DNA from: an uncultured Spirochaetota bacterium
Lineage (GTDB): Bacteria > Spirochaetota > UBA4802 > UBA5550
Length of the DNA: 64,000 bases
Assembly (NCBI GenBank): GCA_963827275.1
Contig: CAWHAA010000009.1
Location: 64,001-128,000 of the forward strand
Direction of reading: 5' to 3'
The position numbers were made by a program. Positions within the stretch are counted from its first letter, which is position 1. Every line of letters starts with the position of its first letter. Below are positions 32,701-38,700 of this stretch, one piece after another.

Positions 32701-35700
32701 GCCATGATCGCCGCGTTGCCGAGACCGGCATTGGGCAGCGACAGGAGCAGGCCCAGGTCCCCCCAGCACATCTCCTCGATCGTGATGACCATTGCCAGGT
32801 TTGCCCCCAGTTTTTTCCCGCCCGGCGCATCGGCCTTCTTTTCTTCTCCCTCTTTTTTCTTCTTTGGCCTGTTCATTATCTTTATCGAGCGGAACATGTC
32901 GAGTTCTTTCGGGTTTTCATGCTCGTGCTCGTCATACTTGCGTGCGATCGGCCGCAGCATTCCTTTGGCCATGCCGTTCATGCTGCCTCTTACCTGGCTC
33001 ATCTTAGTGGTTACTTCAAGATTTATCATTGTCATTCCTCCGTTTAATTATACCGTGGCCATGCCTTCAAGTACGGCGATGCCCCTGCCGTTCCGGTAAT
33101 ACCGCTCCACCGGATGGTCCCGTACGAACCCGTGACCGCCGAGTATCTGTACGCCGTAATCGGTGATCTTCATGGTCATCTCGCCGGCATAGAGCTTGCC
33201 CAGGTAGGCATCGCGCTTCGCGTCCTTCCCGGCTTCGAGCGTGGACGCCGCCTTCCAGGTCATGAGGCGCATCGCGTCCACCTCGTACGCCATCTCGGCG
33301 ACCATGAAGGCGACCGCCTGCCTGTGGGCGATCGGCTCCCCGAACTGCAGGCGTTCTTTTGAATAGTCGCGCGCGTATTCGAAGGAGGCGCGGGAGATGC
33401 CGGTCCCGATCGCCGATAGCGCGGTCCTCGTTTTCTGCAAAAATTTTGCGTAGTCGCAACCCTGCTCGCCGCCGAGCCGGTCGGATGCCGGTACCTCGCA
33501 GTTTTCCAGGGTGACCCCGTATGTTTCAAGGGCGTACATGCCGATGTTCTTCTCGCGGTCGCCGATTTTCAGGCCCGGGTTGTCTTTCGATACGATGAAA
33601 AGGTTCATCGCACCGTCCAGGTTTGCGGCAACGAGCATGTGGCCCGCCTCTTTTGCCATCGGCACGAAGCATTTTTTACCGTTCAGCACGTAGGCGCTGC
33701 CTTTCCTGGCGGCCGTTGTTGCAAGCGAAACAGCGTCGAACTTGAACCGCGGCTCGTTGATCGCGGCCGTGCACGGCTTGTACGCCGCGTCGCAGTAGGC
33801 CGGGATATATTTTTTCTTCTGCTCGTCCGTGCCCATTTCAAGGACGGGGAACATGAATGTTGACGGCAGTGTCGCCGCGATGGCAAGGGACATGTCGCAG
33901 TAGGCGAGCTCTTCAAGTATTATGCTGTTCATTATCGGGGAATACTCCATCCCGTATCCCCCGTATTCTTCGGGTATCGCCGATATCGTGGCACCCAGGT
34001 CCCAGACCTTCTGGATAAATTCCGCCGGTATGGCTCTCTTTTCATCCATATCATGTGTGCTGTCCGATACGACGCTCTTGACCAGGCGGCCCACCGTTTC
34101 TTTCATTGTCCTCTGTTCTTCGGACATGCCGAAACTGAAATCTTTTTCTTCCATGGCGTTCTCCTCGCATGTGGATCATAAAATTAGGAAATAGACTGAC
34201 GTGTCAGTTCTTGTAATGCAGCACGCCGGCCGTCAACTATTTTTTTATAAAAATCGCCGGAGCGAAAATGGCGATGATTTCCCTTGTCATGGTGTCAATC
34301 TCCAGGGCGTCTTTTTTGTTCTTTCTGTTGCCGAAAAAGGTGAGGGCTGTTTTCAAAAGCGCGCCGGTGATCAGGTGCGACGTCATGTCGACGTTCAGGT
34401 CCTTGCGGATATTGTGGTTCCGGATCCCGAGCATCAGGTCGTTCACGATAAGATTGTGTATTTTTTTCTCAAAGCGCTTGGTGGAGTTCTCCAGCTCGCC
34501 GCTCAGCCCGATACCCATCCTGAGCACGATGTTGCAGAGATCCGGATCGCTTGAAAGGAACTGGAGCGTGTTTTTGACCCTGAAAGACATGTATTCGACG
34601 GGGGATATGGTCCTCAGGTCTAGTTTATTCATCTCGATGGAGATGTATTTTTCCCAGTCGTTGTAGAAGTCCCGGATGAGGGTGATGAAAATATCGTCCT
34701 TGTTATTGAAATACTGGTACACGGTGCCGCGGGCGATCTTCGCTTCATCGACGATATCGGATATCTGGGTGTCGTAATATCCCTTCCTGGAAAAAAGGCG
34801 CTTCGCGTATTCCAGTATTAATTTTTTTCGTTCATCGGCTTTCATAGAACCTGCTTTCCTTGAAGGAATATATTTTGTTTACACCGTGGTTGGCGAAAAA
34901 AGCACCGCCGGGAGACGTTTTTGCGGCGCCATCGGATCGCCCGCGATTAATTCGCGTTTTCCCCGCCACAAGGCAAAAATACTGTTGACATAAATTAAAG
35001 GCCGTCTAAAACTGACATGTCAGTCTAAATAAAATGTCACGGTCCGATTTTGTCAATGGAATTTTCTTTTTTTTATAACGGCGAAAAAATAATTTCATTG
35101 ACGCGGTCCGTCCGTATAATAAAACTGACACGTCAGTCTAAATTATACCATCACACACGTGAAAAAGTTAGAAAGGAGGATTCTCTATGGCCGCATTACC
35201 AACTGTACCCGCTGACACCAGCGTAGATAAGCTCTTATCGGAACACATGCCGAAAATAGCAAAGGACCAGCTTGCAAGCAATCCCGCCGCCGCTGACCTG
35301 GCGGGGACCGAGATCACCATGGTTGTGGAAGTGTCGGGTGACAAGCACAGCTTCACGCTGAAAGACGGCAAAGATGTCGTCTACAGCAAAGGCGATATCG
35401 CGTCACCGAAGCTCCGGCTCATGCTTGATAAAGGCGAGCTCGAGAAGATGATCAAGTCCCAGAACCTCGACATGATCCTCGGGATCACGAACGATCTGAA
35501 CAAGGCGAAGGTCAACGCGCTGAATTCGCTCAAGGGCAGCTTCGTGGCCGAGATTACCGATGATGACGGGAGCATTGTAAAGGTCAAGGCGATCCTGAAC
35601 GGCGCCAATGATCCCGCTTCGGTATTTAAAATGAGCGCGAAAGACACCAGCGCGTTGATGCGGAAAGACACCAATCCGGTCAACCTGTTCATGTCAGGCG

Positions 35701-38700
35701 CCATGAAGATTGAAGGCGACATGGCTTTCGCAATGGGCACGCAGCCGCTTTTCAGCTAGAGGCATGAATGCCGCGCGTCGAAAGCGCGGAGGTTGCGGAA
35801 AGATTTAATTTTTGCACCTTCAAAAAAACTGTTTAAGTCGCACTGTTGCCGGGGGATCAGGAGCGCACGGTCGAAACAGCATGTTTCAGGCGCGCGTTAC
35901 TGATCTCCCGGTTGATTTTTTTAAATTATTTATGGGGGTTTGATCATGGCAAACGAACTGCTTCCCTGGCACAAGGAATATAAAATAACAGGAATTCCGA
36001 TCACCTTGAAACCGTATCCCGATGAACCGGTATACAATTTGCTCTATGAAACGGCAAAAAAATATAAAAAGAACGGACTCATACAATACAATTATAAAAT
36101 GACGTATCCGGTCCTGAGAGATAAGGTTGACCGCCTGGCTACGGCGCTCTACAACCTCGGCCTGCGCAAGGGTGACCGCGTTGCCGCCATACTCCCCACG
36201 TCGATACAGTTTATCCTGACCGATTACGCGATTTCAAGGGCGGGCCTGGTGCATATTCCGAGCAGCTCGCTCGATTCGGTCACCTCCCTCGAGCATAAAT
36301 TCAATGAAGGAAAACCGCGGGCGCTTGTGACGCTGGCGGAGCATCTGGATGTCGCGGTGCAGGTCGTCAAAAAATGCAAGATTGAATTTTTAATTCTCTG
36401 CGATTTAAACGATTTCCCCGGGGGTGGCGCGCACGACAGGGGTAAAAATATACCGAAAGACGCGCTGTGGATGACCGACCTGATCGATACAACTCCTCCG
36501 TCTCCGCCCGACCTCACATTCGATGTGGAGAAGGACATAGAGACCCTCATGTTCACCGGCGGTACGACCGGTCTGGCGAAGGGATGCATGCTGACGCACC
36601 GGAACATCTATGCGAACAGCATGCAGGGCCTGTACGCGTTCGGCTTGCAGGGCATGCTCCTCAAGGGGGCCGTAACGGTCCTCATGGGGCTGCCGTTCTT
36701 CCACACCTACGGGCACTCGGTCATGCATAATATGACCTACCTCGGCTTCAGCCAGATCCTGATCCCCGATCCCCGTGACACGGATGGCATGATCAAGATG
36801 ATCAAGGAGCACTGCCCGCTCATGCAGTTCGGGGTGCCGACCCAGTTCATGAAGCTGTCCGAGGAGCTGGAAGGGTATGCGATGCTCGGCGTCTCGGGCT
36901 CGGCCGCGCTTCCGACCAACGTGCAGGACAAGTTTGAAAGCAAGGCGGGCGGCGGCATTCTCGAGGGATACGGCCTGTCCGAGATGTCTCCGACCACGCA
37001 CCTGAATACATCGTTTCTCACCCGGCTCTTCGGGGGCCGCGTTGCCATGAGGATCAATACCATCATGATGAGCTTCCCGGGCGTTCTGCCGCTTCTGAAT
37101 TTATTGCTGCGGCTGGCAGGAACGCGGAACGTGGGTTTCGTGATTACGAAGGCTTTTGCCGTCATGGCGAAAATGACCAGCAAAAAGCCCGCTCCTGATA
37201 AAAACAAGGCGGTTAAAAAAGTCGAGAAGCGGGGGACCATCGGCGTCCCGTATCCGGATGTCGAAGTGAAGTTCCTTTCGGTTGAGACCCAGGAAGAGGT
37301 CCCCGTATCACAGATGCTGAAGGGCGAGAGGGGAGAGATGCTCCTTCGCGGGCCGAACAGGATGCTGGGGTACTGGCCGGAGCCGGGCAGCGGCATTGAT
37401 GAAGACGGCTATATCCACACGAGCGACGTGGTCAGGATCGATGAAAACGGGTTCTTCTATATCGTCGACCGTACCAAGGACATGATCATCGTATCGGGAT
37501 ACAAGGTCTATTCACGCGAGGTGGACGATCTCCTGTACCACCATCCCAAGGTGGAGATGGCGGCGACCGTCGGCATTCCCGATCCGGAGCGGGAAGGGAG
37601 CGAGCGGGTTGCGGTATATATCCAGCCGAGGGAAAAATTCAAGAACAGCATCACTCCGGAGGAGATTATCGATTACCTGAAGCAGAAGGTGGCGAAATAC
37701 GCCGTGCCGAGAGTCGTGCACATTATCGACACGATGCCCCTGACCGAGGTCCACAAGGTCAACAAGAAGCTTCTCAGGGAGATGGCGGCAAAGGATGATG
37801 CGTCCCCGAAGCCGGCTGCGGATAAAGCGGCAAAGAAAAAGCAGAAGGCCAACGCGTAGTGCGCAGCGCCACGGCGCGTCGGATGACACGAAGAGCACGC
37901 ATTTCGATTATTATGATCGATTTACAACAGCGCGTTTCCGCCCTCCACGGCGGGGACGCGCAGCATAAAACTTAATCTGTAACAGGAGAGCATCTATGCA
38001 AATGGAAGAAGCGGTATTTATTGACGGCGTTCGCACCCCGAACGGCAGGGCCCACAAGGACAAGGGCTGGTTCAGAAATGTCAGACCCGATGAGCTGCTG
38101 ACCTACGTCTACCAGGGCATTTTTGAAAGAAACAAGAAAGTTAAACCCGAAGATCTTGACGGGGTATTGGTGGGATGCGCGAACATATCCGGCATGCAGA
38201 ACGATATCGGACGGCTCGGATGGCTCGCTTCCGGGATGCCGGTATCCGTGGGGACCAACACGATAACCAACCAGTGCCCCTCCGGCATGTCCGCCACCAT
38301 GCACGCGGCCCGCGCGATCATGACCGGCCAGGCCGACATCATGCTTGCCGCCGGGGTCGAGGACATGGAAAAGGTCCCGATGGGCGCGAACATGAACTTC
38401 CCGCCGAGGATCCTCAAGTACTGGAACGGCGCCGACCTCCCCATGGGCCCGACGGCCGAGAAAGTCGCGGAAGTGTATAAAGTTGCCCGTGAAGATATGG
38501 AAAACATGGCCATCTGGTCGAATAAAAAGGCGTACGAGGCCCAGCAGGCCGGCAAGTTTAAAAACGAGATCATCCCGGTCAAGGGCCTCGATGATAACGG
38601 CAACGAAATGATGGTGGACAAGGACCAGTGGGTCCGGTCAAAGAGCGAGCCGGAAAAGATGAAGGCGATGACGTCTTCCTTCAGGCCGAACGGCGGCGTG

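Follow-up and report, generated by a model that had tools for sequence, protein, structure and literature searches.

A TetR-family regulator and two operators probably link giant lipoproteins to lipid use in a Spirochaetota bacterium

The window analysed here is a stretch of 64,000 nucleotides from a spirochaete-phylum bacterium that is seen through genome sequence alone. It contains a gene for a TetR-family regulator, located inside a beta-oxidation cluster and flanked by exact dyads of a palindrome that we call operator A (Table 1). The middle operator covers the putative -10 regions of both an SCP2 promoter and the tetR promoter and is kept in all 15 orthologue loci, an arrangement that suggests autoregulation of tetR. 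The operator of the proximal SCP2 promoter is kept in 15/15 loci as well, and an operator at the acyl-CoA-dehydrogenase end of the TetR gene was found in 13 of the 15 within the DNA fetched. Among the matrix matches, none lies upstream of the second acyl-CoA ligase gene.

Table 1. Genes and operator A sites of the beta-oxidation cluster (window positions; promoter boxes are consensus guesses)
Feature	Position	Strand	Basis or context
Enoyl-CoA hydratase	29645..30415	-	Pfam
3-hydroxyacyl-CoA dehydrogenase	30491..31654	-	Pfam
Acyl-CoA dehydrogenase 2	31833..33035	-	Pfam
Acyl-CoA dehydrogenase 1	33048..34154	-	Pfam
Operator A before the acyl-CoA dehydrogenase operon	34192..34211		25 nt downstream of minus-strand TTGACG -35 box (34231-34236)
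TetR-family regulator, 202 aa, putative binder of operator A	34237..34845	-	Pfam TetR_N; PDB; orthologues
Operator A between facing -35 boxes	35008..35027		TTGACA at 34985 (+), TTGACA at 35051-35056 (-)
Operator A over putative -10 box, proximal SCP2 promoter	35121..35140		Starts 23 nt after TTGACG (35098)
SCP2 lipid-binding protein, divergent from tetR	35187..35759	+	Pfam SCP2; synteny with tetR in 15/15 orthologue loci
Acyl-CoA ligase (AMP-binding), 3' of the SCP2 gene	35940..37859	+	Pfam
Thiolase	37996..39183	+	Pfam
Second acyl-CoA ligase, convergent	39329..41152	-	Pfam

The core of operator A is ACTGAC-N2-GTCAGT (ACTGA-N4-TCAGT). The motif named in the title of the survey's finding, AAACTGAC-N4-GTCAGTTT, has no match in the genome, and neither has ACTGAC-N4-GTCAGT. 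Its count of nine intergenic regions was reproduced: the genome has 10 exact copies of ACTGA-N4-TCAGT, whereas each alternative spacer length (0 to 12) gives 0-2, and all 10 dyads are intergenic according to our gene calls, two of them sharing one gap (0.41 expected, 0.2 in the survey). The window contains three of them, at 34195, 35011 and 35124. An iterated matrix converged on 13 intergenic sites (17.6-29.6 bits in our scoring, the next intergenic match being at 14.3), with a single intragenic match at 16.9 bits. One of the 13, C1:2335, is probably a chance match; it lies in a 27-base gap, overlapping both the ribosome site and the start codon of a nucleotide-sugar epimerase gene that carries a frameshift. 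The gene names given earlier were borne out by Pfam, which recognises TetR, SCP2, two acyl-CoA dehydrogenases, START, ceramidase, C45/AAT, the second TetR and an ole-like group (KAS III, hydrolase/AMP-ligase and 3Beta_HSD). The oleA site nevertheless is not conserved: of the 8 homologues for which upstream DNA was available, an 84% orthologue among them, none keeps it (one further homologue row came without upstream DNA).

Orthologues of the window TetR (72-84%) are present in 15 of 16 same-genus genomes, and each of these 15 loci carries two to three operator A sites of at least 22 bits, a much firmer conservation than the 3 of 6 relatives reported before. Outside the genus (relatives at 38-54%), at least one site was found in 8/9 loci. 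Each of the 15 genomes with the orthologue has 6-13 exact dyads, versus 0-4 for controls, and G005, which has no TetR orthologue, has 3 versus 2. Because G005 retains the second TetR with no operator before it, the window's TetR is the likely binder of operator A. Against this reading, the genome G037 encodes a 54% homologue with an identical recognition helix, has no site at this locus and holds one exact dyad genome-wide. Elsewhere, operator A precedes the START orthologue in 7/7 genomes searched and occupies the gap between the second TetR and a FadL-like gene in 12/15 loci. Since the relatives are kin, such counts overstate independence.

With 56.3 bits on Pfam TetR_N (cut-off 24), the window TetR finds its best PDB match in B. 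subtilis FadR (E 6.6e-13), and FadR (YsiA) of Bacillus subtilis and B. halodurans is the best PDB and NCBIfam match over nearly full length. However, it reaches 68.9 bits on the Bacillus FadR model NF053878, whose equivalog cut-off is 200. Whereas the base-contacting Gly42 and Tyr45 of Bacillus FadR are kept (Gly41 and Tyr44 here, residues common to many TetR proteins), the Asp41 position is Arg, and pairwise alignments, which have a one-residue gap nearby, put Glu119 opposite the ligand-binding Arg117; this replacement and the NCBIfam score mean that acyl-CoA is not assured as ligand. The Bacillus operator, given as WTGAATGAMTANTCATTCAN in the accessible text of PMC5397183, shares the TGA-N4-TCA core geometry with operator A but has AATGA rather than ACTGA half-sites, and operator A lacks the outer TGA/TCA overlapping second repeat used, according to that text, by the Bacillus dimer of dimers. 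Both regulators sit on beta-oxidation genes, but the regulon described here also reaches outer-envelope genes. By description, it resembles the TetR repressor FadR of Sulfolobus acidocaldarius, which acts on a lipase and beta-oxidation cluster and is released by acyl-CoA (PMC6449355, accessible text); that archaeal system is a local cluster control, whereas here the regulon is genome-wide and lipases fall mostly under a second operator. PsrA and FadP likewise govern fatty-acid degradation as TetR-family regulons of Proteobacteria and replace each other between lineages, as summarised in the accessible part of PMC5343134. The window TetR reaches 23 bits on the PsrA model, whose cut-off is 300. 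PvrA is another TetR-family protein, while E. coli FadR, which activates from a site near -40, belongs to a different family, GntR. In the part of PMC7293031 available, Pseudomonas aeruginosa PvrA is described as an activator with ligand bound that connects fatty acyl-CoA with a secreted phospholipase and with beta-oxidation genes, and no two-position architecture of the kind seen here is mentioned; E. coli FadR represses catabolic and activates other fatty-acid genes, the latter being biosynthetic, unlike the uptake genes that follow upstream-type sites in our genome. Conserved operators, such as mark a TetR fatty-acid degradation regulon, do lie at the beta-oxidation operons. We best read the system as a FadR-like, non-orthologous TetR lipid regulon.

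The survey had contained neither the second dyad, operator B (ACCGTC-N2-GACGGT), nor the tie that it makes to secreted lipases and the FadL-like gene, nor the existence of two operator positions. Most giant lipoprotein genes have operator B near their start codons, as do the FadL-like gene and genes for hydrolases and secreted lipases. Operator B precedes lipase homologues in 5/16 and 4/40 loci; the G000 lipase matches solved lipases (E 1e-17), and the nearest clusters of the channel are FadL/AupA (0.97). Both regulons also include genes with no evident lipid role (a STAS protein, a radical SAM protein and 7TM sensors). As to the protein that binds operator B, the start of the TetR paralogue C6:73714 carries a B-like site in 11/11 orthologue loci, but this paralogue was not found in four genomes that carry B (G021, G022, G019 and G036). 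B counts are high in G021, G022 and G019 and low in G005 and G024. Four more TetR candidates, profiled in 5 genomes, have no B near their genes; two of them have motifs of their own.

The orphan giant lipoproteins (roughly 1,200-1,900 residues, 162 representatives at 50% identity) are associated with both operators. Two matrices trained without lipoprotein sites were run over 34 lipoprotein promoters of relatives at a threshold of 16 bits: operator A occurs in 18/34, versus 13/3449 upstream regions of G000, and operator B, which thus marks more of them, in 24/34 versus 23/3449; 28/34 have either and 14/34 both. The link in relatives, first put at 1 of 6, is therefore far stronger than it appeared, with operator A spread over five clades of the lipoprotein tree and found at lipoprotein promoters in 14/15 same-genus genomes. 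Operator A is absent from 16/34, including a whole subclade of five and g01024/g03410; operator B reaches g03410. The gene numbers of the survey were matched to our gene calls by order and position only (g00104, C1:104264(-); g00624, C4:7786(+); g01024, C4:~406911(+); g03410, C10:21830(-)). It is hardly credible that AT-rich spacers would produce the lipoprotein sites by chance: A-tract flanks do raise the score and the earlier count was low, but block shuffles keeping local composition gave 1/3400 matches for each operator, which refutes chance unless the matrix scoring is at fault, and neither the clade distribution nor the fixed distance from sites to the -35 box fits it.

At envelope genes, operator A takes a looser form, AAAACTGA-N4-TCRGTTTT, and lipoprotein sites often read ACTGAA, not ACTGAC, with no CATG centre. 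One other G000 TetR has a recognition helix identical to that of the window TetR and a paralogue has a near-identical one, so the looser lipoprotein sites could be a paralogue's. We regard as distinctly improbable the version in which the lipoprotein, START and FadL-like sites belong to the second TetR (C5:619183), giving two A-type regulons and leaving the window TetR a local beta-oxidation repressor only. In favour of this version, the recognition helix of the second TetR is near-identical, and its own gene has such a site. Nevertheless, START sites have the canonical CATG form, G005 has the second TetR but neither a site before it nor a dyad excess, and the B. subtilis box likewise allows A or C at the variable position, according to the accessible description.

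Operator A occupies two positions relative to promoter boxes, which are consensus guesses: over the -10 box at beta-oxidation promoters, and just upstream of -35 at START, FadL-like and lipoprotein genes. A gap of 2-6 nt from the operator to a -35-like hexamer was found for START in 8/8 (always 4), for the FadL-like gene in 12/13 and for lipoproteins in 17/24, against 0/46 beta-oxidation sites and a control chance rate of 2.8-6.5%. The g00624 promoter does not have this arrangement. A sigma-54 enhancer role of far-upstream sites was rejected, as no -24/-12 pattern occurs among the matches listed and TTGACA boxes follow the sites. RNA contigs (shares <=0.11) yielded neither start sites nor levels. 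The clean split of positions by gene class, far above chance, would also suit a regulator of dual sign that represses beta-oxidation at -10 and activates uptake genes from upstream of -35, so that lipid-starved cells would make scavenging gear while breakdown stays off, with operator B as a gate. TetR activators of fatty-acid genes are indeed known, PvrA being one in the accessible part of PMC7293031. We nonetheless think this unlikely, since a gap ranging over 2-6 nt, as much as about 140 degrees of helical turn, is more in keeping with steric blocking than with a polymerase contact of fixed geometry; in addition, the boxes are guesses, g00624 departs from the pattern, and the TetR-type FadR proteins of Bacillus and Sulfolobus are repressors in the descriptions available.

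We therefore favour the following mechanism. A dimer of the window TetR would bind ACTGAC-N2-GTCAGT and, at -10 regions, would repress its own promoter as well as the dehydrogenase and SCP2/ligase/thiolase operons; a fatty-acid signal, most likely long-chain acyl-CoA, would release it. At START, FadL-like channel, ceramidase and giant lipoprotein genes, the looser operator upstream of -35 would most likely damp the promoter by covering the UP-element zone, and a second regulator would bind operator B near the gene starts of lipases, hydrolases, the FadL-like protein and most lipoproteins. Being under two lipid-linked controls, the lipoproteins would most likely belong to a lipid-scavenging system, at the surface or in the periplasm. 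This combination of TetR and operator A with co-control through operator B, the lipoproteins serving in lipid scavenging, is the explanation that we consider fairly probable.

The proteins themselves begin with a hydrophobic signal peptide followed by Cys21, which, read by eye, is invariant in a 43-row alignment. They have no Pfam or NCBIfam match, nothing below E 0.16 in a PDB profile search and no usable match in the ESM Atlas. A single-sequence fold was unusable (pLDDT 32), and an alignment-based fold gave a confident model; when it was searched whole (1200 residues), Foldseek gave no match at E 0.001 and the best Z was 5.0, to helical hairpins, and this whole-model structure search detected neither a lipid-binding nor a hydrolase fold. 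No partner transporter gene adjoins the G000 copies. These absences, together with the non-lipid-looking members of both regulons, leave some room, though we judge it rather unlikely, for another reading in which the sites are real, both regulons belong to broad programmes for nutrients or the envelope, and the lipoproteins, switched along with them, have a non-lipid job in adhesion, as scaffolds or in attack on other cells. Against it, lipid genes are the targets that both motifs keep best, and G005 (one genome, 93%-complete) is missing the lipoprotein along with the exact B pattern and the TetR orthologue. The lipoproteins are probably lipid-scavenging envelope proteins; membership in the regulon, as first claimed, is supported, and their part in lipid use is suggested by the company of co-regulated genes.

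The family extends to Leptospira, a genus living on long-chain fatty acids; a Leptospira homologue had no match in the plasmid collection. A bolder proposal, speculative and in our opinion improbable, makes the lipoproteins a new-fold class, not described before, of Spirochaetota surface proteins that capture or process lipids, with distant Leptospira kin. In their two-operator gate, one TetR would repress fatty-acid breakdown at -10 and activate lipid scavenging upstream of -35, and a second regulator would control the lipoproteins jointly with secreted lipases. Searches of the accessible literature returned no description of this regulon, and exact-string searches of it for operators A and B showed no bacterial TetR paper among the entries listed. 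Because TetR-controlled fatty-acid regulons are well known, the regulator by itself is of modest news value. The position split offers a clean test of whether one TetR can both repress and activate. The main value lies in a functional lead for an orphan giant lipoprotein family reaching Leptospira: two independent operators connect it with START/SCP2 proteins, lipases and a FadL-like channel, so that a direct and cheap test of lipid binding or processing is at hand.

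In the genome under study (G000; 4.13 Mb on 11 contigs, with 3458 genes called by our own script), the survey's finding was a 13-site TetR regulon of lipid catabolism, built on the motif AAACTGAC-N4-GTCAGTTT and taking in two orphan giant lipoproteins, g00104 and g00624. The matrix again converged on 13 intergenic sites, but the motif as worded has no match in G000 since its spacing is wrong, the core being ACTGAC-N2-GTCAGT (operator A). ACTGA-N4-TCAGT is found exactly in 10 copies, all intergenic (0.41 expected), and each other spacer in 0-2 copies. The three copies in the window (C9:64001-128000) surround a TetR gene flanked on one side by SCP2, acyl-CoA ligase and thiolase genes and on the other by two acyl-CoA dehydrogenases, a 3-hydroxyacyl-CoA dehydrogenase and an enoyl-CoA hydratase. 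Two further sites of the 13 precede genes for a STAS protein and an uncharacterised 312-aa protein, and one, probably a chance match, lies across the start of a sugar epimerase gene broken by a frameshift. Frameshifts are abundant in this assembly; the splits, which include three of the five lipoprotein copies, are probably assembly indels. Separately, the 14-bp palindrome CCGATAACTATCGG (145 copies genome-wide) resembles a REP-type repeat and often forms short tandem arrays in which it alternates with GGGGTCAGAGTAA. PMC7382037 and PMC13248872 describe members of the class UBA4802, to which this genome may belong, as digester-dwelling fatty-acid oxidisers.

Coordinates of the features discussed (C, contigs of G000; L, individual loci)
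Location	Feature
window 34195, 35011, 35124	exact operator A dyads
window 34237..34845 (-)	TetR gene
window 20310, 47715	CCGATAACTATCGG copies
window 46074-47498	HypF-like gene, split by frameshift
window 48361-60428	formate dehydrogenase-like and NiFe hydrogenase-like clusters past the beta-oxidation genes, read from translations
C1:2335	operator A site at the epimerase gene
C1:2360-3420	sugar epimerase gene, split by frameshift
C1:95158-104264, C4:406911-411232	lipoprotein copies split by frameshift
C5:619183	second TetR
C6:73400-74322	paralogous TetR L147
C8:458200-458400	motif TTGGTTGGYCGTCCAAT
L198:9578-13333	Leptospira fluminis Big_5 lipoprotein

Among 40 relatives searched, 16 of them from the same genus, the window TetR is present at 72-84% in 15 of these 16 with unchanged gene order, and all 15 loci hold 2-3 operator A sites of at least 22 bits. 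Outside the genus, homologues at 38-54% have at least one site at 8 of their 9 loci. Exact dyads number 6-13 in each of the 15 orthologue-bearing genomes (controls 0-4) and three in G005, which has no orthologue (control 2). The START orthologue is preceded by operator A in 7/7 genomes searched, and it is present in the gap between a second, paralogous TetR and a FadL-like gene (FadL/AupA likeness 0.97) at 12 of 15 loci, a count that omits two more distant copies. With leave-one-out matrices, the C45 gene retains it in 4/4 close orthologues (11.8-14.0 bits) and the ceramidase gene at 10 bits or more in 7/16, the closest orthologue lacking a site; the oleA cluster, formerly counted as a member, drops out (0/8 homologues). 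Genes for 7TM-DISM-like sensors are preceded by operator A in five relatives (L138, L139, L257, L309, L324) and not in G000.

We infer that the window TetR binds operator A because sites lie at its own promoter and because of the pattern in G005, where the second TetR is kept and the site before it is absent. Two observations speak against it: G037, the exception outside the genus, has a TetR homologue but no operator A at its locus, and another TetR of G000 has the identical recognition helix. The closest solved relative of the window TetR is Bacillus subtilis FadR (E 6.6e-13); the FadR box WTGAATGAMTANTCATTCAN has the TGA-N4-TCA core in common with operator A, and long-chain acyl-CoA releases the protein (PMC5397183). 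The NCBIfam FadR score is 68.9 for a cut-off of 200, and FadR Arg117 aligns with Glu119. The window TetR would work like FadR, yet is no member of that family. Very probably it would repress the beta-oxidation genes, and acyl-CoA or fatty acid is a reasonably likely ligand. Elsewhere in G000, the large thiolase/acyl-CoA operon that includes a further TetR gene carries a repeated motif of its own (see table).

Operator A occupies two positions relative to promoter boxes, which are consensus readings rather than mapped starts. For 26 of the 32 SCP2/tetR rows, the scoring places the start of the 20-mer 22-24 nt past TTGAC (for the remaining six it picked up a nearer TTTAC); the distance is 24-31 nt in 12/14 rows of dehydrogenase sites. 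The operator therefore covers the predicted -10/start region of beta-oxidation promoters. At envelope genes it lies just upstream of a -35-like hexamer, ending 4 nt before it at START (8/8), 2-6 nt before it at the FadL-like gene (12/13) and at the lipoproteins (17 of the 24 rows that score 13 bits or more, G000 contributing two rows), and abutting TTGATA at the ceramidase gene (7/8). None of the 46 beta-oxidation rows has this arrangement, which chance would produce at 2.8% of intergenic positions and at 6.5% of those following a T-tract; g00624 itself does not have it. Activation from such upstream sites seems unlikely.

The giant lipoprotein family occurs in 15/16 same-genus genomes and 8/24 others. 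Of 46 starts located, 34 were counted; the five from G000 were set aside, as were seven second copies in tandem and a start whose upstream DNA spans 30 nt. Using a matrix of 11 non-lipoprotein G000 sites, a 16-bit cut-off and 500-nt upstream regions, operator A was found in 18/34 lipoprotein regions compared with 13/3449 in G000 and 1/3400 block shuffles. Per genome, this corresponds to 14/15 within the genus, G002 falling short with a best site of 13 bits, and 3/6 outside; G021, without a TetR orthologue, scores 5. In a tree built from the 200 N-terminal residues, sites are distributed over five clades, a fairer count because kin are not independent; one subclade with five members and the clade of the orphan lipoproteins g01024 and g03410 have lost them. 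The form of these sites is looser (AAAACTGAA-NN-TTCRGTTTT), mostly 260-430 nt ahead of the start codon. The window TetR would also bind these promoters, which we regard as likely.

A second dyad, ACCG(T/G)C-NN-GACGGT, is present in the same upstream regions; this operator B mostly lies 50-115 nt ahead of the start. A matrix of 16 sites from five distant genomes, none of them in a lipoprotein promoter but all gathered with a pattern that had first been spotted at lipoprotein genes, gives at least 16 bits in 24/34 regions versus 23/3449 in the background; A or B is present in 28/34 and both in 14/34. All 14 best matches in G000 are intergenic and lie before g00624, g00104, two lipases, the FadL-like gene, hydrolases, another lipoprotein and CoA ligase-like, radical SAM and uncharacterised 312-aa protein genes; g03410 has a site of 17 bits. 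One of the lipases matches solved lipases at E 1e-17, and its homologues in relatives are preceded by operator B in 5/16 and 4/40 loci. The exact pattern occurs in 15/16 same-genus genomes and is absent from G005. Operator B is not read by the window TetR, because G021 and G022, which lack an orthologue, have 9 and 6 sites, and no regulator for it was found among the TetR candidates. Both conserved dyads are observed directly, as are their target genes and positions.

In the g01024 clade, and in one copy besides (L014, L048, L049), operator B is longer-spaced, its half-sites lying four bases further apart. Upstream of a paralogous TetR gene (L147 and loci L117-L136) stand one or two copies of a third dyad, ACCKGAC-GC-GTCMGGT, and a B-like site lies close to the start of that gene; relatives keep this arrangement. 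Membrane-bound AraC regulators lie directly upstream of both lipases and the ole-like cluster (L003, L149, L150), which suggests a third, local control layer.

The lipoprotein family comprises 162 representatives at 50% identity; named homologues of the G000 protein are from Spirochaetota, the distant ones reaching Leptospira fluminis and L. fletcheri. The L. fluminis gene has an AraC regulator gene and a fatty-acid desaturase gene as neighbours. After it comes the gene for a 1251-aa lipoprotein that contains a Big_5 domain and has no homologue in G000; the C-terminal part of this protein may resemble BPI/LBP lipid-binding proteins, a likeness without Pfam support. A model of residues 21-1220 of the giant lipoprotein from 43 sequences (pLDDT 81.7, pTM 0.84), searched whole rather than by domain, gave no Foldseek match and a best structural Z of 5.0, to helical hairpins; neither the sequence nor the whole model has a feature pointing to lipid.

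No description of either operator was found in the literature searched, a partial coverage with RegPrecise and supplements outside it. The genus-wide TetR lipid regulon is real and of an already known kind, and it stands together with its lipoprotein tie once the operator spacing is corrected and the list is reduced to fewer firm members. A lipid-scavenging role for the giant lipoproteins is somewhat favoured. The regulon's tie to these orphan lipoproteins is better supported than first proposed, because sampling was wider and because they have a second operator in common with lipases.
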